64,000 nt of DNA from Escherichia phage vB_EcoM_DE7: sequence record OL825705.1. One strand, given 5' to 3'. The position numbers were made by a program, and so were the translations under genes. How positions within the stretch are numbered: position 1 is the first letter of the stretch; every line of letters starts with the position of its first letter. Below the pieces are notes generated by a model. It did not search any database and was not told the origin of the DNA. It was given only the letters and a program-made list of their open reading frames with translations. Positions 20,901-59,510 of the stretch are shown here, piece by piece.

Positions 20901-21230
20901 TTAATCTGCCAGCCTTAAATTAAAATTAACACCAAATTTTTCGCATACTTCCAACATATACTCAAGGGAGACATTACCAGTGAGGTGGATTATGTTGGAT
21001 ACACGAGCCTGAGAGATACCACAAATTTTAGCAACTTGCTCTTGAGAAAGACCTCTGGATTTAATCTCTCTCTTAAAACGATGTGCAACGAAATCTCTCA
21101 TTTCGTCTACATCCATTGGACAAATATAACTTTCCATTTCAGCCTCTCTGTCAGCCTCCCAATCATCTTGTGGAGCATAAGGGTCAAAAACCTCATTCAT
21201 CTTTCTTCTTCCGTTTTCGTGAAGTGTCAA
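20901..21230 (-). CDS. HTH (XRE-like) DNA-binding protein
   Basis: C-terminal helix-turn-helix-like segment LSQEQVAKICGISQARVSNI. Confidence 0.5.
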   Translation of the reverse strand: MTLHENGRRKMNEVFDPYAPQDDWEADREAEMESYICPMDVDEMRDFVAHRFKREIKSRGLSQEQVAKICGISQARVSNIIHLTGNVSLEYMLEVCEKFGVNFNLRLAD

Positions 21231-21406: not shown

Positions 21407-21790
21407 TCAAATACCTGTGCAGCTTCTGTTTTCTAAGAAATACTCAACACCATACATAGCTTTTTGCATCAAATCTTCTTTAAACTGGATACGATGATTA
21501 AGCATAGCCTGTACATCAATATCATCATGGTGTTTCTCTTTAATATTTGCAGATTGCAGGAAATACTCTGCAAGAACACGATACTGATAGTCAGTTACCT
21601 TATCAGTCATCTCTGTTAAAGACTCTTCAGAGATTGGTTTAAGCAACTCACCATTAGATAGCGCAACACCTTTTACAATCTGGCAAGTATCTTCTGGAAC
21701 ACCTGATAAGTCCACATTTGGGAGTTCTGTTGCATTGACTGGTAAATTCATTGCCATAACCATTGCAGCAGCTAATAAAATCTTTTTCAT
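21407..21790 (-). CDS. secreted/periplasmic protein (signal peptide)
   Basis: N-terminus MKKILLAAAMVMAMNLPVNA resembles a Sec signal peptide. Confidence 0.45.
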   Translation of the reverse strand: MKKILLAAAMVMAMNLPVNATELPNVDLSGVPEDTCQIVKGVALSNGELLKPISEESLTEMTDKVTDYQYRVLAEYFLQSANIKEKHHDDIDVQAMLNHRIQFKEDLMQKAMYGVEYFLENRSCTGI

Positions 21791-21896
21791 AATGACCTCA
21801 AAGTTATATTAAATTTTATATTACATTGAGTATAAAAAATAAGCTATAACACCTGACTTGTCAACAGATTTTATAGCTTACTTGGCAGATTTTTTA

Positions 21897-21975
21897 TAAG
21901 GCTACTGCCATCCTTCCATACCAAACCACACCAAACCCTGCCAAACCAGAGCCTACTAGACCATACCGAACCAAA
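21897..21975. repeat. CCAAACC direct repeat cluster (GGTTTGG on coding strand)
   Basis: CCAAACC x3 plus CGAACCAAAC within ~70 bp in the intergenic region upstream of the 21790 gene. Confidence 0.4.
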
Positions 21976-22079
21976 CATCACTTAAGAACCTTTTAAAAGT
22001 GTTTTTAAGTGATGCTGGTGAGTACCCGTTGGTTTATGCTGCTCAGTATACTCACCAAATTTTCTATGTCAACAACTTT

Positions 22080-23216
22080 TTATTCGTAGTCTCGAATAAC
22101 TAACCCAACAGGGAACTGTAAAGAACCTTTACGAGTCATCTTCTGGAACTGAACCGTTAAAGGCTTCCCGATAAACTCTTCAGGATGCTCAGCAAGATAC
22201 TGTTTCTTCTCATGAGTAGTCTTCCATGAGACATCTACAAAGACGTTAGGGAGAGTCTCTACAACGAACTTGCCATGACCACGTTTATCGGTCTTGACAC
22301 CAGTCACTTTAAACTCTTCAGTGTGCATCTTCTTGTGCTTAATCAAGAAGTATGAACGGTGACAACACTCATAGAAGGAGTCTTCAGAGATTGAACGGTA
22401 CATTGCACCTTCAAACTTAGCTTCAACCCACTTATCATGGGCTTCATCAAACTCTTCCCAAGAGTTAACACGACGAGACTTAACAGGGACAACTTTACAG
22501 CCATCTCTGAAATCATTCAATGGTGAAGTCTCAATAATATCTCTACGCTCAGGCCACGTCATAGTGCTGTCACAGATATCGTACCAGTAGAACTGGAGTA
22601 GATGTCGGTCTGGATTGTCAGCATTCTTAATCATAGACACAATATCTTCTAAGTCCCAACCATGAGCATAAATCTCACCATCAAAGTCTTCGACTTGTGG
22701 ATGCAATTTAAGCAACAAAAGCAAATCTGGGATTAGTTCTGCTGGGACGTTGTAAACAGTATTCTCACGAGAATAAGCCGTGAAACTAACTGAATCAGCG
22801 TCTCTTGAAATTCTACAACGAACACCATCAAGTTTTGGTTGAGCATCAGCAGGGAACCTCAAATACTTTGCGTGACTAACCTTTGCAGCATCATGAGCAA
22901 GCTGTACACCTACCTTCTCAGTGTTCTGTGCAGACTCTTTTGTGTAAGCATAGCCTTTACGGTCAACCTGCTTTTTATACTTAGCAGAAACTTCAAAGAG
23001 AGCTTGCTGTTCAGCGTTACGCTCATTCTTTTTACCGATGTTTTTAGGTTCTGCTGTATACTCTTCAAACATCATCTTGCCATTTTCTTTACCATAGGTT
23101 GTGATAACTTTGTCACCTACAGCAACGCATGACCAGACGTTAAAAGAGCCGTCTTTATTTTGTTTGTATAGAATTGTCATTTTTAACCTCTGAGTGATAC
23201 CAAGTGTTGCAAGCAT
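22080..23216 (-). CDS. ATP-dependent DNA ligase
   Basis: Adenylation motif I KLDGVR in a 378-aa protein. Confidence 0.85.
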   Translation of the reverse strand: MLATLGITQRLKMTILYKQNKDGSFNVWSCVAVGDKVITTYGKENGKMMFEEYTAEPKNIGKKNERNAEQQALFEVSAKYKKQVDRKGYAYTKESAQNTEKVGVQLAHDAAKVSHAKYLRFPADAQPKLDGVRCRISRDADSVSFTAYSRENTVYNVPAELIPDLLLLLKLHPQVEDFDGEIYAHGWDLEDIVSMIKNADNPDRHLLQFYWYDICDSTMTWPERRDIIETSPLNDFRDGCKVVPVKSRRVNSWEEFDEAHDKWVEAKFEGAMYRSISEDSFYECCHRSYFLIKHKKMHTEEFKVTGVKTDKRGHGKFVVETLPNVFVDVSWKTTHEKKQYLAEHPEEFIGKPLTVQFQKMTRKGSLQFPVGLVIRDYE

Positions 23217-23855: not shown

Positions 23856-24371
23856 TCAAGATAGTTTTGCAAACTCTCCGTGGAGTTTCACAGCAGCTTC
23901 ACAGTAAGCTTTATGGGCTTCTTCTTCTGTTGTGTACGTCCCGATATGTATAGTCTTACCATTATGGTTAATCTGGGCTTTCCACTTACCAGACTTACTT
24001 CTACTTGTACCTTTTAAGTTTTTTGATGTTCTAGGTTGCCTCCTATTAGACATGTTCTGTTCTTTTGTGGCCTCTCTAAGATTGTCCCAAGCATTATTCA
24101 AACCGTTCCCGTCTTTGTGGTCAATATGATTGTCAGGCCACTTACCTGTCATCCAGAACCAAGCAATTCGGTGATTGCCTGTCCTGTATCCTAAAATCTG
24201 GGTTTGCATATACACACCAGACCTTGTGCGCTTGATTGTACCAGCCTGTCTTCCAATCACCACCCTACTGCTATGTGGAGGTCTGCCAATCCAAGTCAAG
24301 ACCCCTGTTTCGGGGTCGTAGTCTAACCAAGATTTTAACTGTTCATGTGTGAATCCACAATCTCTCATCAA
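23856..24371 (-). CDS. HNH homing endonuclease with AP2-like DNA-binding domain
   Basis: HNH motif IDHKDGNGLNNAWDNLREATKEQN plus C-terminal AP2-like segment SGKWKAQINHNGKTIHIGTYTTEEEAHKAY. Confidence 0.75.
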   Translation of the reverse strand: MMRDCGFTHEQLKSWLDYDPETGVLTWIGRPPHSSRVVIGRQAGTIKRTRSGVYMQTQILGYRTGNHRIAWFWMTGKWPDNHIDHKDGNGLNNAWDNLREATKEQNMSNRRQPRTSKNLKGTSRSKSGKWKAQINHNGKTIHIGTYTTEEEAHKAYCEAAVKLHGEFAKLS

Positions 24372-24927
24372 TGTACCTCATACCACGATTTACCAACCTT
24401 TGCTGTACCAGTTACAAGTGTTTCTTTCCTCAAACCTAAGTTTTTTGAAGCTTGTCCATACATCCAGTCAGCAATTGCTTTCATATCATGTGTCATACCC
24501 TCTGGACATTCCCAACTATTTTCATCGTGATATGCCAGAAGTAACCTTGCTCCGATAGCTGGTTTTCGAGCATTCAGTTTTGTCAGACCATCTTCACAGG
24601 CTTTTCTTGCTGCTAGGTTGATGGCCTCATTCTGAATCTGTGCTTCCGAACTCATCAGGAGGTAGTTCAGTAGTTTATGTGGAGATTTGCACCATATCCA
24701 TGCTCCAGCGACCCTGATATAACCACCTTTAGCAATTGAAGAATTCTTCCCAAAAACCTCTTCCAGAGCCTTTTTAGACGCCTTAAAATCGGCTTCTAAG
24801 CTATCAAGTAACTTCTTAATCTTTGGCAGACGCATATAGTAGGTCTGCTTAGTCAATGCACCTTCCTCTGTAGAAGCTGCCTTAATGGTTTTGGCAAACT
24901 TCTCATCACCTGCACCGAACAATACAT
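24368..24927 (-). CDS. DNA polymerase (family A), exon 2
   Basis: Begins with motif B remainder LFGAGDEK and ends ...KSWYEVH like the Pol I C-terminus; no ATG, joined to exon 1 by splicing (junction +/- 3 nt). Confidence 0.7.
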
Positions 24928-25732
24928 CTGGTCAATACACTCGCAAGGTGTACCAGTTCTCTTATGAACTTCTCCGCATTTCTACGGAGTGTCGGACTAT
25001 ATCACGTAGTAGTTATACTACCGTTGCACTTGGGAATGGTCATTAGCTTACCACCCTACTCTACTCAGTTCATACATTAAGTATGCTTTTCGATAGTCTC
25101 TGAACGTTTCTCTGTTAGGAATCTCTATAGTTATATCATTTGCTTAGATAGTCAATTGCTCTTTGCATGTTATCAACACTATCTGCAAGCAACCCCAAAG
25201 CTCTGTTGCAATTGTGGCATAACATACCTCTTACCTTTCCGGTTTTATGGTCATGGTCAACAACAAGTTTAGCCTTGTGTCGTGAGCCATTCATGATAAA
25301 ACCTTCACCGCCACAAATTTGACATTTGTAATCACAGTCACGGAGTAGGGCTTCAACCTCTTCTCTTTCCAATCCATATGTTCTTAGGTAGTAATTCTTA
25401 ACTCTACCTTTCTCACCGCAATGTGACGAACAATAAACTTGCCTTGCTGTTCTCGGCATGAACACATTCTCACAACTAGGACATTTCTTAGTAAGAACCC
25501 TGTGTTCCGCCCTTCTGTCAAATTTTAACACACAACTTCTGCACCGTTTTTGATTGTATTGGTACGGTTTAAACTCCGTGCCACACTCAGTGCATAATCT
25601 CTCTTCGTAACCTGCCATTGTCTCTCTCCTTTGTTTTAGGAGTCCTAACAGAGACTTCGCTGCTGATTACCATATCTTTACAGACTTAGGCTTCCAGCAA
25701 TTCACAACGTTTTACATGCGCCACTGACGCAT
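24928..25732 (-). other. group I intron in DNA polymerase gene, carrying an endonuclease ORF
   Basis: Interrupts motif B; stop codon just inside; AGACUA ... GAUAUAGUCCGAC P7-like elements shared with the nrdD intron; hairpin with U-G at proposed 5' splice site; G before exon 2. Confidence 0.6.
25136..25618 (-). CDS. intron-encoded Endo VII-type HNH endonuclease
   Basis: VVDHDHKTGKVRGMLCHNCNRALG motif and zinc-binding cysteines; own SD AAAGGAGAGAGA. Confidence 0.7.
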   Translation of the reverse strand: MAGYEERLCTECGTEFKPYQYNQKRCRSCVLKFDRRAEHRVLTKKCPSCENVFMPRTARQVYCSSHCGEKGRVKNYYLRTYGLEREEVEALLRDCDYKCQICGGEGFIMNGSRHKAKLVVDHDHKTGKVRGMLCHNCNRALGLLADSVDNMQRAIDYLSK

Positions 25733-27902
25733 AAATGCCATTTTTGCTCTTCTTACGACCTTTTGTAATCTCGTGAAGAAGTTCCTCATCCTGTGTCTCC
25801 CTGCAACGAACAATATCCTCTTCTTTGTTAAGACCAAAGTAAATACTGTTCAGTGTATGCGCATCAGTCCCTGTGTAGACTTCATAGAGGTCATTTTCAG
25901 CATCATAACGCAGATACTTGTCAGTTTCTGGGTTAAGATACTTGTCAAGATGTTTACAGTAGTATCTACCATCATCTTGCTTAGTGAACTCTACTGACTC
26001 TTTACCCTCAGTTACCGCTTTAGTGAAGTCTTCATCACCCATAAAGTTACAAAGAAGAACTAGCTGGGCTGAGTTCTGGTCAACAGAAACAATGTTAGTC
26101 CCCTCTTCACAAATCCACACCTCCCTCATAGGTGCTCCATAGACAGCAGCGCCAGACGGTACGTTTACAATACCATATTGAGTCATACGTCCAGTTGAAG
26201 TACCAAATACCATTGCACCAGCACTAAGGCGACCATCAGGACGAATCTGGTTCAACCAACCTTTTTCATCATCCTTTGAGTTCTCAATAGTTCTGCGTCG
26301 GTGCATCAAAGTATAGTATTTAGCAATCTTCTGTCCAAGCTCACCTTCAATCGTATCATAAGATGATTCAGTAAGTTTTGGTGAAGTACGGATTAAACAA
26401 GGTTCAAGTAAATCTGTGTACTTCTTCACAGACCAGTTATGTTCAATGTACTGGACACCTTCATGTTCAACATAACTCAAACCACACCGTTCCACCATCT
26501 CATCCCACTTAGGATGCTTTGTAATCATCTTTTTGTTGTCTTTGAAACGACAAACTTTGACAGGACGACCATCTGAGTCTTTCTTATAGTTCCAGTCATC
26601 TGGAATCCAACCAACTGATTTCAAGTAGTCTTTAACAACCGCTACCTGAGTCATACGAGAAACTTCGAACTCAATTGGTGTATATGGTGCATCAATCAAA
26701 CCTGTGTAGCGACTTGACTCAAGCTCAAAGTGGTTAACAACATGACTGTTATAGTACTTCACAGTTTTTACTGTTTTTACTGGCTTCCAGTCTTTGCATT
26801 TCTTACCAATCTTTGCATTCAACTCATTGCAAATTGCACGAGCATCCTTCATTGCTACAAAACCTTCCTTGTACTCTTCACCAGTTACAGAGTTGGTTGG
26901 TGTATAGCAATTCCGTTTTTCAATGTTAAAAATCTTTGTAGTTGGCTTACCAAATGGCTTGATTTCATATGTCTGCATTTCACCGTTACGTACCTGCTGA
27001 CGATACTTTGTCTTAGGGTACTTGGTAATTCTCTTCAGTCCATCTGCATGACCAAATGCTTCAACATACTCATTCCAAGCTTTTGCAAACTCTTCTCCAG
27101 TGACTTTACCTTTGGTTTTAATAGTCGGAGGTAGATGTGGTTCAACCTCTGAAGCAAGCTCATTAGTCAACTTGTCAAGTTCCTTTACATGAAACTCCAT
27201 AAGTTCTTTATCAGCTTTCCAACCATTGATAGCCTGTTGACTCATCCAGAAAGATGTTTCTTTAGCTCGCATATAGGTTTCATAGGTGTCTACGCCACAC
27301 TTCTTTAACTTCAGATATTCATTATCCAGTGCACGTTTAGTTTTGGCGTTAATACGGATATCCTCTACAACACGAGTGAAGATTTCTGCATTCCACACAC
27401 CCCAATGTTCAATCTCTGGTTTACGTACACCAACACGAGCACCCCATGCAGCCAAGCCATGAGCACCTTTGTAGCCCTTTGGAGTTGGTCTATCCATCCA
27501 CTGAACACGAGACTGGATAAGAGAATCCTGAAAGAAATTACTCCACGGCTTACACTTTGGATTATCAAAGTTCCACAAATCAGGTGCAATGTGATTGAAA
27601 ACCCACCAGTCATATCCCAGACCATTATGGATGCAAAGTCGTTTTGCCTTTAACGCAAACTCAACACCTTCACGCAAACCACCCTTGATGTACTTGGTAT
27701 ACTTGTGACCGAGGATAGGTTCATCTGTAAAGACCCATACAGGTGGCTCTTCATCGTCAGACTTATAGTCTGCGAAAGCCATTACGTGCACTTTAGTGAA
27801 CTCAAGGAGTAAACCATCAGTTTCTGTATCACCAACTAAATGTAAGTTTTTAAAATCTACGTTTTCCATTTCTACTCCCTCTAAATCATTAACCTCATAC
27901 AT
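25733..27902 (-). CDS. DNA polymerase (family A), exon 1 (exonuclease and N-terminal polymerase domains)
   Basis: Pol I-type region DAHTLNSIYFGL ... RKKSKNGIY (motif B start); track ORF 25686..27902 runs 15 codons into the intron before a stop. Confidence 0.8.
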
Positions 27903-28125
27903 TACTGCAAAAAATTATAAAAAGCAAGTTGACAATGTACTTGACAAGGTGTTAATCTTTGCGAAGTGGGTTTTTACTTAAAAGGTTACTTAACAGTTTA
28001 ACTATACAGATACTTTAAAACTCTTAAAAGATTATTTAATAGCTTTTAAAAAGCTTTAAAGTATAACGTATAGAATACGTTAAGATAAAAGATTAAAACT
28101 TAATAGTTACTTAAAAGAGGCTTAC
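27903..28125. promoter_or_regulatory. divergent AT-rich control region between polymerase operon (-) and + strand operon
   Basis: Tandem TTGACA hexamers (TTGACAATGTACTTGACA) and AT-rich spacers; separates divergently transcribed blocks. Confidence 0.4.
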
Positions 28126-53387: not shown

Positions 53388-53409
53388 GGCTGCTTCGGCG
53401 GCCTTTTTT
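53388..53409 (+). terminator. rho-independent terminator
   Basis: GGCTGC-TTCG-GCGGCC hairpin followed by TTTTTT. Confidence 0.65.
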
Positions 53410-53470
53410 ATTTGTATTTTGTGCAGAGTGCTGTATAATTGTTGTCACGATAAACTAAACAGGAGAACCA

Positions 53471-55180: not shown

Positions 55181-55205
55181 GGCTCCTTCGGGAGCCTTTT
55201 TCATT
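55181..55205 (+). terminator. rho-independent terminator
   Basis: GGCTCC-TTCG-GGAGCC hairpin followed by TTTTT. Confidence 0.6.
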
Positions 55206-55220
55206 TCAGGAGATTGTTAA

Positions 55221-55568
55221 ATGACATTTAAAGAGTTCTGTCAAGCTACTTTCATAATTGTTTTCTTAGTTGGAGCAGGTGTCTGGGGAGGATACTCTTA
55301 CAGAGACTATCAAGTTGTTGAATCTGAGCTAAACAATGAGAAACTAATCAGTGTTGCTAAAGATGCTTATCAGGAAGGTTTAGCCACACTCAGCACCAAT
55401 TACAAAAATGATTTGAAAGATGTGCTTGCTAAGAATAAGCATACAAAAGAGGTACTAACGTATGAAAAGACTAAGCCAGAGTTTTATAATGTTTGTGTTA
55501 CTGATAATTATGTCAGGGTGTTCAACGAACAAAGTGAACAGTACATTCAAAAACTCCCAAGTAAGTGA
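55221..55568 (+). CDS. i-spanin (Rz-like)
   Basis: N-terminal TM (FIIVFLVGAGVWGGY) followed by charged coiled-coil; overlaps a lipoprotein ORF in another frame. Confidence 0.55.
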   Translation: MTFKEFCQATFIIVFLVGAGVWGGYSYRDYQVVESELNNEKLISVAKDAYQEGLATLSTNYKNDLKDVLAKNKHTKEVLTYEKTKPEFYNVCVTDNYVRVFNEQSEQYIQKLPSK

Positions 55569-56539: not shown

Positions 56540-56740
56540 ATGGCTGACTTCTGCAAAGATTGTGCTATCGAAATGTTCGGACGTGATACAGGAGACTTAA
56601 AAGGTCTTATCACTGAAGATGACTTTAAAGCTGGCTATGCAATGCCAGTAATCTGTGAAGGTTGTGGATGTATCTGGGTAGACCACGAAGGACAACGTGT
56701 AAAACCTTCAGAAGATAAAGAATCTTGGGAGAGATGCTAA
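56540..56740 (+). CDS. small zinc-binding protein (hypothetical)
   Basis: 66 aa with CKDC ... CEGCGC. Confidence 0.3.
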   Translation: MADFCKDCAIEMFGRDTGDLKGLITEDDFKAGYAMPVICEGCGCIWVDHEGQRVKPSEDKESWERC

Positions 56741-57526
56741 ATGGGTATTGTAAAAATAATCAATGGGGATATCTTCTCCGCATTTGATAAAGGTAAGTTT
56801 GATATCATTGGTCACGGTTGCAACTGTATGAACTTAATGGGTGCAGGTATCGCTGACAAGATTTCTAAACTTTACCCAAAAGCATATGAGACTGATACAG
56901 AAGTTTATCTGTATGCAGGTGGTATAGGCCACAAACCCTGTGAAAATTTACTAGGCAATTTCTCTGTAGCACGTTTAGAACAAGGCCGTATAGCTAACCT
57001 TTACACTCAGCTTAAGACTGGTAAAGATGCCCGATACAGTGCTTTAGAGTCATCTTTGAAACAGCTTAACAGATACTGTGGAGTCAATCAGTTGAAGAAA
57101 GTTGGGTTACCTATGATTGGTGCAGGTATCGGTGGACTAGACTCTCAAGCCGTCACAGTCATCATTAATCAGGTGATGAAGAGCGTAGATGTTTACCTGT
57201 ATGTCTACGAGACAGAGATGTACAACGAGTTACACTCAGGTTGGAAGAACTACTGCGAACCGGAATACTTTGCAGGTGTAGTAACGTTCACAGACAATAC
57301 AGTTACCCTCTTCAGACGAAGAAAGGGTAAGGTACATCAAAGTAACCCTCCGGTTGAAAAGATGTCCCTAAGTAACGCTCTAGTTACCCACCTGTCGAAG
57401 AGCAATCACAGAATTGCCGTAACATTTGGCAGTGATGCAGATACATATATCTATGCAAGAACTGATGAGGATGTTGAGGAAATTTTCTCATCATCAGAAG
57501 TTACCTTCTTAGACGCAAAGAACTAA
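56741..57526 (+). CDS. macrodomain protein (TARG1/OARD1-type ADP-ribose hydrolase-like) with C-terminal extension
   Basis: NGDIFSAF ... DIIGHGCNCMNLMGAGIA matches the GDLF ... HC.S ... MGAGIA pattern of OARD1-type macrodomains (from memory). Confidence 0.5.
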   Translation: MGIVKIINGDIFSAFDKGKFDIIGHGCNCMNLMGAGIADKISKLYPKAYETDTEVYLYAGGIGHKPCENLLGNFSVARLEQGRIANLYTQLKTGKDARYSALESSLKQLNRYCGVNQLKKVGLPMIGAGIGGLDSQAVTVIINQVMKSVDVYLYVYETEMYNELHSGWKNYCEPEYFAGVVTFTDNTVTLFRRRKGKVHQSNPPVEKMSLSNALVTHLSKSNHRIAVTFGSDADTYIYARTDEDVEEIFSSSEVTFLDAKN

Positions 57527-57595
57527 GAAACTCTGTAGAATATTCACAATAGACTAAGCCTTTCTTATCTGGTAAATTTTTCAGGTAAGGAGGGC

Positions 57596-57790
57596 TTTTT
57601 CATTTCAGGATTGTGCAGGTAGATTTCTGGACAGAAATCTGTAGAGAGGATTTTGAACTCCAAAGAGAAAATTCATTTTCAAACTGTGCAGGTAATCTCC
57701 AAAGAGCTTTTTCATTTTCAAAACGTGCAGAGAAAAATCAGGTCGGGCAAGAAAAATCATTTTCGAATTGTGCAGGTAGGTGGGTGCAGG
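57596..57790. repeat. iteron-like direct repeat array (4-5 copies of CATTTTCAAAnTGTGCAGGTA)
   Basis: Copies at ~57601, ~57673, ~57714, ~57759 plus a GTGCAGGTGGGG extension; spacing 41-72 bp; non-coding. Confidence 0.6.
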
Positions 57791-57954
57791 TGGGGATGTC
57801 GCCATTTCTCACAAGGCTACCACATCTAGAAATAAAAGTCAACAGAAAAATTTGTAGCGGCTTGAAAAATAATTCTTGATTGTAGTTCTGTTTTGTGGTA
57901 GTCGCGTGCGCCCGTTTCATTACATTTTTGCCAAAAATATTTTTAAAATTTTTA

Positions 57955-58048
57955 TTGACTCCTCGAACGGGTTTTTATAGTATTTGCATCAACGGGGAGG
58001 GAATGACCTTCCCCACTAAGTAAAACCCTTAAACTAGGAGATTCAAAA
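57955..58048 (+). promoter_or_regulatory. type-1 leader cassette: promoter (TTGACT-17-TAGTAT) + conserved hairpin leader + RBS
   Basis: Core ATCAACGGGGAGGGAATGACCTTCCCCACTAAGTAAAACCCTTAAACTAGGAGATTCAAAA ends at ATG 58049. Confidence 0.6.
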
Positions 58049-58240: not shown

Positions 58241-58443
58241 TTTACAGCCGTGAATTGATGGTTACAACTAACGTTAACACAAATGTAAAACGTTTTTATA
58301 TGCAAATCTGCGGCGCATGGCGTAGAATATCAGAATCTGACTATTGCAACTATGTAGAAACGGCTATTGATTCTAATTGCTATCTTACAAAGAATACAAA
58401 GCGACATATAAAACAGACAGCAGTTTATTACTACGATATATAA
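58237..58443 (+). CDS. small hypothetical protein (68 aa)
   Basis: ATGA-coupled to the upstream gene. Confidence 0.35.
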   Translation: MIYSRELMVTTNVNTNVKRFYMQICGAWRRISESDYCNYVETAIDSNCYLTKNTKRHIKQTAVYYYDI

Positions 58444-58532
58444 AAGTACTTTACAAGGGGCTTAAAAGCTGATATCTTAAGCCCCAGATAAAAAGCTTTA
58501 TCACATTAACCTTAAACTAGGAGATTCAAAAG
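58441..58532 (+). promoter_or_regulatory. type-2 leader cassette (divergent copy): stem-loop + conserved RBS
   Basis: Starts at upstream stop codon; GGGGCTTAA ... TTAAGCCCC hairpin, then CCTTAAACTAGGAGATTCAAAAG before ATG 58533. Confidence 0.5.
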
Positions 58533-58913: not shown

Positions 58914-59001
58914 TAAAGTACTTTACAAGGGGCTTATAGTTCGATAAAGTAAGCCCCAGATAAAGAGATTTACCACTAAATCCTAAATTGGAGATTCAAA
59001 A
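58912..59001 (+). promoter_or_regulatory. type-2 leader cassette: stem-loop + conserved RBS
   Basis: AGTACTTTACAAGGGGCTTATAGTTCGATAAAGTAAGCCCCAGATAAAGAGATTTACCACTAAATCCTAAATTGGAGATTCAAAA ends at ATG 59002. Confidence 0.55.
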
Positions 59002-59406
59002 ATGGCTATCAATAAACGCGAATTATCAATTTTAAAAGCACGTTTGACCGTTAACCGGATTAATGTTATTACGTCATCAGCACCAGACGAAACACTGCAA
59101 AACATTATTGGGAAGATTCAAAGTGTTATCTTAGACGTTGAAAACGTGAAAAACTCACTGACTGACGTTGCAGCAGGTATCACGCTAGACGGTGCACAAT
59201 ATGAAATGGCTGACATGTTAGGCAAATCTAAGGTAATGAATAGGGAGCTTGATTTGAAAATGTTTCGGTTTGCTGTTAAAGTGTGGCTATCTGTCGAGTA
59301 TGACGCTAACTTTGCAATCGCTGACTTTTTCGCCACTTGGTTACAACGTAATTTGACAAATCATGATTTTCGTGATATCTGTGATGCAATTTATGCAGAA
59401 ATCTAA
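59002..59406 (+). CDS. small hypothetical protein (134 aa)
   Basis: ORF begins directly after a type-2 leader. Confidence 0.45.
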   Translation: MAINKRELSILKARLTVNRINVITSSAPDETLQNIIGKIQSVILDVENVKNSLTDVAAGITLDGAQYEMADMLGKSKVMNRELDLKMFRFAVKVWLSVEYDANFAIADFFATWLQRNLTNHDFRDICDAIYAEI

Positions 59407-59415
59407 AAATTTTTA

Positions 59416-59510
59416 TTGACACTGATTTTTAGATATATTAAATTATACATCAACGGGGAGGGAATGACCTTCCCCACTAAGTAAAACCCTTAAACTAGGA
59501 GATTCAAAAA
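59416..59510 (+). promoter_or_regulatory. type-1 leader cassette: promoter (TTGACA-17-TAAATT) + hairpin leader + RBS
   Basis: TTGACA 59416-21, TAAATT 59439-44, conserved core 59449-59510, ATG 59511. Confidence 0.6.

Follow-up and report, generated by a model that had tools for sequence, protein, structure and literature searches.

Between the macrodomain gene and the first early-gene cassette of Escherichia phage vB_EcoM_DE7 (OL825705.1; the 64,000-nt stretch analyzed here is called the window), we found an array of four co-oriented direct repeats, with cores at positions 57600, 57673, 57712, and 57757 (i.e., start-to-start spacing of 73/39/45 bp). On the basis of its sequence and conservation, the array quite probably represents three to four docking sites that are selected at the DNA level and serve one sequence-specific protein. 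We infer the protein binding, and we guess, from position only, that its effect is on transcription and not on replication. Our preferred reading, to which we assign a probability of a little more than one in three, is that the array acts on transcription as a multi-site docking platform at the junction of a terminator and early promoters. The array is a new, unannotated example of a familiar type of element. No description of it was found in the literature searched, its annotation was absent from every GenBank record inspected, and the Felix O1 genome paper gives direct repeats other than this array (PMC3185647).

A 3-kb stretch around the array matched 241 phage records at 90 to 96% identity, nearly all of them Escherichia, Salmonella, Shigella, or Citrobacter phages of the genus Felixounavirus. 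Thus, the window is about three-quarters of one genome of a Felix O1-like myovirus (Felixounavirus, Ounavirinae). The gene order was taken from the annotated relative UAB_Phi87. The flanks of the array are as the initial annotation had stated, with the macrodomain gene on the 5' side and promoter/stem-loop/RBS cassettes on the 3' side, where many small genes each have a cassette of their own. The array resides in the 522-bp gap from the macrodomain gene to the first early-gene cassette (57527 to 58048), which is among the largest non-coding gaps. The main features are as follows.

1 to 17.6 kb, plus strand: structural genes (UAB_Phi87 annotation).
18 to 28 kb, minus strand: DNA polymerase/ligase/thymidylate synthase cluster (UAB_Phi87 annotation).
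From 28.5 kb, plus strand: long block with the primase-helicase, ribonucleotide reductases, rIIA/rIIB, spanins, and the macrodomain gene.
56741 to 57526: macrodomain gene (Pfam Macro), upstream of the array.
57556 to 57597, plus strand: intrinsic terminator of the upstream operon (macrodomain gene), with a 17-pair stem and an 8-nt loop, then TTTCATTTCA.
57581 to 57621, plus strand: repeat R1, core TCATTTCAGGATTGTGCAGGTA at 57600 to 57621; PWM score, 49.4; ortholog in every related array.
57654 to 57694, plus strand: repeat R2, core TCATTTTCAAACTGTGCAGGTA at 57673 to 57694; 0 mismatches; PWM score, 53.1.
57693 to 57733, plus strand: repeat R3, core TCATTTTCAAAACGTGCAGAGA at 57712 to 57733; 3 mismatches; PWM score, 48.6.
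57738 to 57778, plus strand: repeat R4, core TCATTTTCGAATTGTGCAGGTA at 57757 to 57778; 1 mismatch; PWM score, 46.1.
57779 to 57833, no strand: variable spacer, G-rich here (including the partial GTGCAGGTG) and C-rich in most relatives.
57834 to 57857, plus strand: conserved block AAAAGTCAACAGAAAAATTTGTAG; columns invariant or nearly so in 9 genomes from 3 genera.
57864 to 57904, plus strand: A/T-rich tract and promoter-like site TTGATT-N17-TAGTCG (site, 57876 to 57904) with a weak -10.
57930 to 57983, plus strand: UP-like A/T-rich tract and first early-cassette sigma-70 promoter TTGACT-N17-TAGTAT (promoter, 57955 to 57983).
3' of the first early promoter: stem-loop (57994 to 58014), RBS, and first cassette gene (58049).

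In the minus-strand cluster, the DNA polymerase gene (23856 to 27902) is split into an N-terminal part (25686 to 27902) and a C-terminal family-A fragment (24368 to 24922). These parts are separated by an endonuclease VII-type ORF (25136 to 25618), and the C-terminal fragment is directly followed by an HNH-AP2 homing endonuclease ORF (23856 to 24371). Just 5' of the macrodomain gene is encoded a Cys-rich 66-aa protein (CxxC...CxxC; 56540 to 56740), which is also present in the relative L116. The 522-bp gap contains no GATC site, and a mononucleotide shuffle expects about 3.8.

At three or fewer mismatches, TCATTTTCAAANTGTGCAGGTA matched only 57673, 57712, and 57757 in the whole 64 kb (chance expectation, 0.01; none of 100 shuffles gave three matches); the copy at 57600 is a fourth one, with four mismatches. 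The anatomy of the unit was derived from 132 units in 33 distinct arrays. It consists of a 5-bp A- or T-tract, TCATTTY, six variable bases, and GTGCA. ATTT (+2 to +5) and GTGCA (+13 to +17) are invariant in 131 to 132 of the 132 units, and T0, C1, and G-6 are almost so. Only A or T occurs at positions -5 to -1, which form an A-rich tract in 62 units and a T-rich tract in 70, and the 6 to 7 bases between the TCATTT and GTGCA blocks vary freely. Conservation reaches from about -19 to +21, which makes the unit about 40 bp long, whereas the initial annotation gave 21 bp. The same annotation counted four to five copies spaced 41 to 72 bp apart. The array and four true copies stand, at the spacing given above, but the supposed fifth copy (57783 to 57792) is only GTGCAGGTG without the TCATTT half and is missing from most relatives. 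A single Chi-like octamer with one mismatch is located at 57786, within this nonconserved partial copy. By eye, R4 and unit 3 of Erwinia phage phiEa21-4 (GGCAAGAAAAATCATTTTCGATTTGTGCATAG) differ very little.

The gap sequence was present in 289 phage records. The array occupies the same position in all four genera (i.e., Felixouna-, Moogle-, Susp-, and Kolesnikvirus); in Moogle and phiEa21-4, this is the same syntenic slot, after the macrodomain gene and before the early cassettes. For the Erwinia and Hafnia phages (Kolesnikvirus and relatives), the repeats are the sole part of the 522-bp gap that is detectable by blastn. The conservation of repeat number, which had been suggested as a check, holds for most lineages (four copies), with three copies in Si3-type phages and L116. 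Copy numbers and start-to-start spacing are as follows.

Felixounavirus (22 distinct sequences): four copies, 73/39/45 bp.
wV8: four copies, 73/39/43 bp.
Moogle-type phages: four copies, 75/41/45 bp.
L027: four copies, 77/39/45 bp.
Erwinia phages: four copies, 37/37/39 bp; the units abut one another.
Si3-type phages: three copies, 75/45 bp.
L116: three copies, 75/39 bp.

Among nine genomes from three genera, 69% of the alignment columns in the units were invariant, compared with 24% in other intergenic DNA. Because this difference exists despite macrodomain proteins that are only 64 to 70% identical to that of the window, we consider the units to be under purifying selection. The array is among the most strongly conserved non-coding elements of the regions compared. 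The genes beside it differ between lineages and the array itself stays, which argues that it is an autonomous module. Erwinia phage BoyaciRG1 (L007/L077; OR125561.1) has an exact 1,232-bp end duplication that includes the array (1 to 1232 and 84523 to 85754); the boundaries of the duplication are inside genes, and it may reflect an untrimmed circular assembly and not a true terminal repeat.

PWM scores were 43 to 53 at the array and 16 at the next-best site (window and whole UAB_Phi87 genome), so that each genome carries one array. The only other site with any PWM score, located downstream of rIIB, is the one that scored 16 in UAB_Phi87, which is probably a coincidence. In the window, the corresponding region (53388 to 53445) comprises a terminator after rIIB and then a near-consensus promoter, TTGTAT-N16-TATAAT, the spacer of which contains TTGTGCAGAG. 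Pattern scans of IMG/VR, JGI/ENA metagenomes, and GTDB genomes left only Ounavirinae-type contigs after PWM filtering; the other matches were coding repeats or due to chance. The array had no similarity to 5,426 E. coli genomes and 72,556 plasmids, and we rejected a host-derived sequence.

The array had been placed in non-coding DNA, with ORF 57613..57879 as the only ORF there and as a by-product of the repeats. The non-coding claim was borne out, since the frames over the array are not conserved in relatives. That ORF is not the sole one, however: four ORFs of 58 to 88 aa, on both strands, overlap the array. None of the four is conserved, and indels of 2, 4, and 10 bp in the alignment break every frame across the array. 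ORF 57613..57879 (plus strand; GTG start) is indeed built from the repeats and spurious, as its reading frame is not preserved in relatives, and we rejected it as a gene. It encodes 88 aa here and 50 aa in most Felixounavirus phages (CGA here versus TAG inside R4 in most relatives), and it is absent from Moogle-type phages, L025 to L027, and phiEa21-4. The annotators of relatives disagree on the strand and extent of the ORF over the array, and many GenBank records contain spurious ORF annotations across it. A CRISPR array was also rejected: the intervals between cores (17 to 51 bp) are partly repeated themselves (CTCCAAAGAG) and are kept between phages, unlike unique spacers. Tandem sigma-70 promoters were not found by a consensus scan of both strands from 57527 to 57950. 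Readings of the units as sigma-54, sigma-E, or -35/UP-like elements, judged by eye, failed on spacing or on the conserved positions.

At 57556 to 57597, a G+C-containing hairpin followed by a T-run lies at a gene end, as expected of an intrinsic terminator, and its T-tract (57596 to 57609) doubles as the left half of R1. This terminator is t13 of Felix O1, the strongest one listed for that phage (-21.8 kcal/mol; PMC3185647), and the records of wV8 and AYO145A mark its equivalent as a terminator. Across genera, the 3' arm of the hairpin (CAGGTAAGGAGGG) never changes, in contrast to the variable 5' arm. On the other side of the array, the block 3' of R4 is G-rich in this phage, VpaE1, EC6, and GEP101 but C-rich and G-poor (CCCACCATCCCCTCTTACTCCCC) in wV8, Moogle-type phages, and Erwinia phages. 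The G-rich block is not an inverted copy of the C-rich one, as we found no significant similarity between them in either orientation. The conserved block AAAAGTCAACAGAAAAATTTGTAG resembles, by eye only, a repeat unit minus the TCATTTTCAAA segment. Since this segment is missing, the block is probably not a binding site of the repeat-unit kind; it may belong to the promoter-like site that follows, as a distal UP-like part. The latter site is present in all of the genera aligned (TTGAYT, 17-nt spacer, TA(G/T)NNG), with the -35 and the spacing conserved. Its assignment as a promoter is tentative because the consensus scan did not report it. Just 3' of it, a short G+C-rich dyad (57895 to 57915; alignment judged by eye) changes in sequence by genus and keeps its symmetry (CGTG..CACG, GCGT..ACGC, and CGCA..TGCG); possible identities are an operator and a 5' hairpin.

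The early cassettes that follow are repeated (57930 to 58048, 58443 to 58532, 58915 to 59001, and 59406 to 59510), and each consists of an A/T-rich tract, a sigma-70 promoter, a stem-loop, and the common RBS AACTAGGAGATTCAAAAATG. Repeat families D3, D9, and D12 show that the first cassette recurs at 59406 to 59500. Taken together, the terminator, the four sites, the spacer, the conserved block with the promoter-like site, and the UP-like tract with the early promoter look like a composite control region.

In the mechanism that we propose, the four co-oriented sites would dock one sequence-specific DNA-binding protein, either a conserved phage protein of no assigned function or a host factor common to Enterobacterales. 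About one helical turn separates the TCATTT block from the GTGCA block, and the 5-bp A/T-tract precedes them, such that the protein may read two adjacent major grooves and a narrow minor groove. The bound complex might strengthen or tune termination and shield the early promoters from read-through; alternatively, it might represent an upstream control region for these promoters. An action on transcription appears the most likely because the array starts in the t13 T-tract and ends about 100 to 180 bp before the early-cassette promoters, and the invariant association with the terminator tail and promoters is our reason for preferring it. A feature duplex DNA, and not RNA, would present is also argued for by the alternation of A-tract and T-tract versions between units.

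As in an operator array, a conserved recognition sequence is repeated at one control region. No promoter hexamers occur in the array, and none is overlapped or closely flanked by its sites. The nearest -35-like hexamer lies about 100 bp 3' of R4 and the early promoter lies about 177 bp 3' of it; the gap of about 100 bp is far for a classical repressor or a class I/II activator. The initial annotation had offered multi-site regulator binding, for example an early-gene switch. The invariant half-sites, kept across four genera, favor a selected element with several protein-binding sites. A switch would suit the position, which is directly 3' of the strongest terminator and 5' of the first early promoters; on the other hand, the repeats are overlapped by no promoter, and the flanking genes are early on both sides. 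In Felix O1, the genes on both sides of the array (13; 16 and 20 to 22) were assigned by reverse transcription-PCR to the 5-min class (PMC3185647), and the array is therefore not an obvious temporal boundary. The only recognizable sequence-specific regulator of the phage is an XRE HTH protein (20901 to 21230; minus strand), which was present in 258 Felixouna-, Moogle-, and Susp-type records and in none of the array-carrying Erwinia phages. This absence weakens both the switch and the candidacy of the XRE HTH protein as the cognate binder. Consensus patterns for classical host factors (IHF, DnaA, CRP, Fis, sigma-54, LexA, ArcA, PhoB, and boxA) were not enriched in the gap, and none was located inside the array.

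Several known systems resemble such a platform in part. The p4 region of phi29 contains four A-tract-based sites between early and late promoters, and the array likewise has four A/T-tract sites that would jointly organize a complex controlling phage promoters. The phi29 sites, however, are inverted repeats overlapping the controlled promoters; the array consists of direct repeats that overlap no recognizable promoter, and no p4-like protein was identified. Arrays of Fis sites lie upstream of rrn P1 together with UP elements, and arrays of the AraC/MelR type are composed of asymmetric 17- to 18-bp sites. The array shares with these systems several asymmetric, irregularly spaced sites upstream of a strong UP-element sigma-70 promoter, and its bipartite core of about 18 bp is similar to the AraC/MelR-type sites. 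It differs in lacking a Fis consensus, in its greater distance to the promoters, and in that no AraC-family gene was found among the proteins scanned. The early regions of T4-type phages carry repeated promoter/stem-loop cassettes (PeSL). PAK_P1-like phages have 41-nt promoter repeats (PMC4309531). The window's own early cassettes are comparable to both, and the array resembles these systems in that it stands at the head of a hyperplastic region in which small early genes have repeated sigma-70 promoters. The PeSL and PAK_P1 repeats are promoters dispersed between genes, whereas the array is a single tandem cluster without promoter hexamers.

The main rival, second to a role in transcription and in our view possible but doubtful, is an iteron-type replication origin, which the initial annotation had also suggested. 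Binding of an initiator to the four repeats would bend or wrap the DNA and melt A/T-rich sequence close by, and an RNA primer or transcriptional activation would come from the strong early promoters next to it, as at lambda ori or T4 oriE. Four co-oriented direct repeats with a 22-bp core at one locus per genome (iteron arrays have at least three of about 17 to 22 bp), in one of the largest non-coding gaps, agree with this suggestion. So do the A/T-tract in every unit, the A/T-rich promoter region 150 bp downstream, and the deep conservation. In addition, no origin has been described for the Felix O1-type group in the literature searched, which contained nothing relevant on origins, iterons, or transcriptome data for this group. 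Of the defining origin features that can be judged from sequence, however, most are lacking or equivocal in the array; the absence of helical phasing and of a linked initiator and the direction of the skew speak against an origin. The spacing (73/39/45 bp) corresponds to 7.0/3.7/4.3 turns, i.e., not to multiples of about 10.5 bp, and it varies by genus (75/41/45 bp in Moogle-type and 37/37/39 bp in Erwinia phages), with only three copies in some lineages. The least stable DNA near the array (57915 to 57954) ranks only about 120th among the 40-bp windows of the stretch and is a UP-like tract common to other cassettes. No initiator-like gene is linked, the neighbors being the macrodomain gene and small cassette genes that differ by lineage; a scan of 10 proteins found no Rep/O/DnaA-like domain, and the replisome genes are 25 to 30 kb away. 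The GC3 skew of plus-strand genes is -0.04 upstream and -0.21 downstream of the array, a shift opposite in direction to that expected at an origin, which is weak evidence. The change starts about 1 kb before the array and may only reflect another class of genes. Moreover, two gaps among the replication genes (21.8 and 28.0 kb) look more origin-like. The gap beside the DNA ligase gene (21790 to 22080), which looks at least as origin-like as the array, contains the least stable 40-mer of the window (21803 to 21842), two 19-nt palindromes, and short CCAAAC/ACCAAACC repeats at 10- to 15-bp spacing (21912 to 21976). The other gap (27990 to 28115) separates the minus-strand DNA polymerase cluster from the plus-strand primase-helicase block and has divergent promoters, the least stable 100-mer of the window (28016 to 28115), and a 27-nt A/T-rich palindrome within 28010 to 28064. 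Known origins differ from the array as well. Lambda ori has four O-protein binding repeats with A-tract bending beside an A/T-rich region, and the array shares four repeats at one locus, an A/T-tract in each, and a nearby A/T-rich region and promoters. The lambda iterons, however, are regularly spaced 19-bp inverted repeats inside the initiator gene O, while the array has asymmetric direct repeats at variable spacing (37 to 75 bp), no linked initiator, and no outstanding unwinding element. T4 oriE reportedly has iterons near an early promoter and depends on RepEB. It is similar in being a set of direct repeats near early promoters in a lytic myovirus, away from the main replisome genes; it differs in that no repE-like gene was recognized beside the array, the sequences are unrelated, and the origin role here is only proposed.

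A signal for another DNA transaction (i.e., a genome-entry pause or stop, a polar replication-fork barrier, or a packaging site remote from the cut) is unlikely. The T5 first-step-transfer stop region, a proposed pause site for stepwise genome entry, is a precedent. All units of the array have one orientation, the 22 kb from the left end of UAB_Phi87 to the array hold the tRNAs and all early cassettes, and the GC3 skew shifts near the array in the direction expected of a terminus, although this shift, beginning upstream as noted, may only mirror gene class. The ends of UAB_Phi87 were mapped by Bal31 digestion and run-off sequencing (PMC4837284), and in its record, each end carries the same exact 542-bp repeat, which falls within the tRNA cluster. 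The array is found at 22.2 kb, about 25% of the genome from the left end. Because 22 kb separates it from the 542-bp terminal repeat, the array is not at the packaging cut site, and we rejected a genome terminus or pac/cos site; two-step DNA entry was not reported for the group in the literature examined. It is improbable that the array is an evolutionary relic, i.e., a tandem duplication of a terminator-tail/RBS module with no function of its own or serving only as a homology patch for module exchange. Terminator 55183 to 55221 is t5 of Felix O1 (PMC3185647), and its tail plus the RBS of the next gene (55195 to 55221; CTTTTTCATTTCAGGAGATTGT) closely resembles R1 (CTTTTTCATTTCAGGATTGTG). This near match hints that the units may have arisen from such a module, and lineages with different flanking modules join within or beside the array. 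Neutral repeats, however, would not hold ATTT and GTGCA in 132 units beside unalignable intergenic flanks, nor would they keep three to four copies at near-constant spacing within each genus. An RNA-level element, in which a non-coding RNA with repeats titrates an RNA-binding protein or acts as an attenuator, is very improbable. In its favor, the units run in the direction of transcription from a terminator onward, and the plus strand folds slightly better than shuffles (z = -2.3), a signal that comes mostly from the terminator hairpin. We rejected a structured RNA because the consensus fold is weak (-13.6 kcal/mol for 219 columns), includes no compensatory pair, and has an unfavorable covariation term (+0.83), and an Rfam search of the array found nothing at gathering score. 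The A-tract and U-tract versions of one unit position would also be very different RNAs, and no promoter lies upstream of or within the array, which is preceded by the strongest terminator in the genome.

Beyond the local platform that we prefer, the array might nucleate or anchor a DNA-binding factor that governs the whole block of early cassettes as a unit, an idea that we regard as a long shot. Examples would be a silencing or insulating complex spreading from the array, or an entry stop/pause signal that would hold the first quarter of the genome (tRNAs and early cassettes) in the cell before the rest, comparable to the first-step transfer of T5. If true, such a whole-block mechanism would be one undescribed for Felix O1-type phages. 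How the transcription of Felix O1 is timed has been stated as not known (PMC3185647), and Felix O1 and related phages are classics in typing and biocontrol. Since the array is strongly conserved and unannotated, and since transcription timing and the origin are undescribed for this group, the four GTGCA cores provide a small and concrete target for finding either the origin or the missing regulator of the early program.
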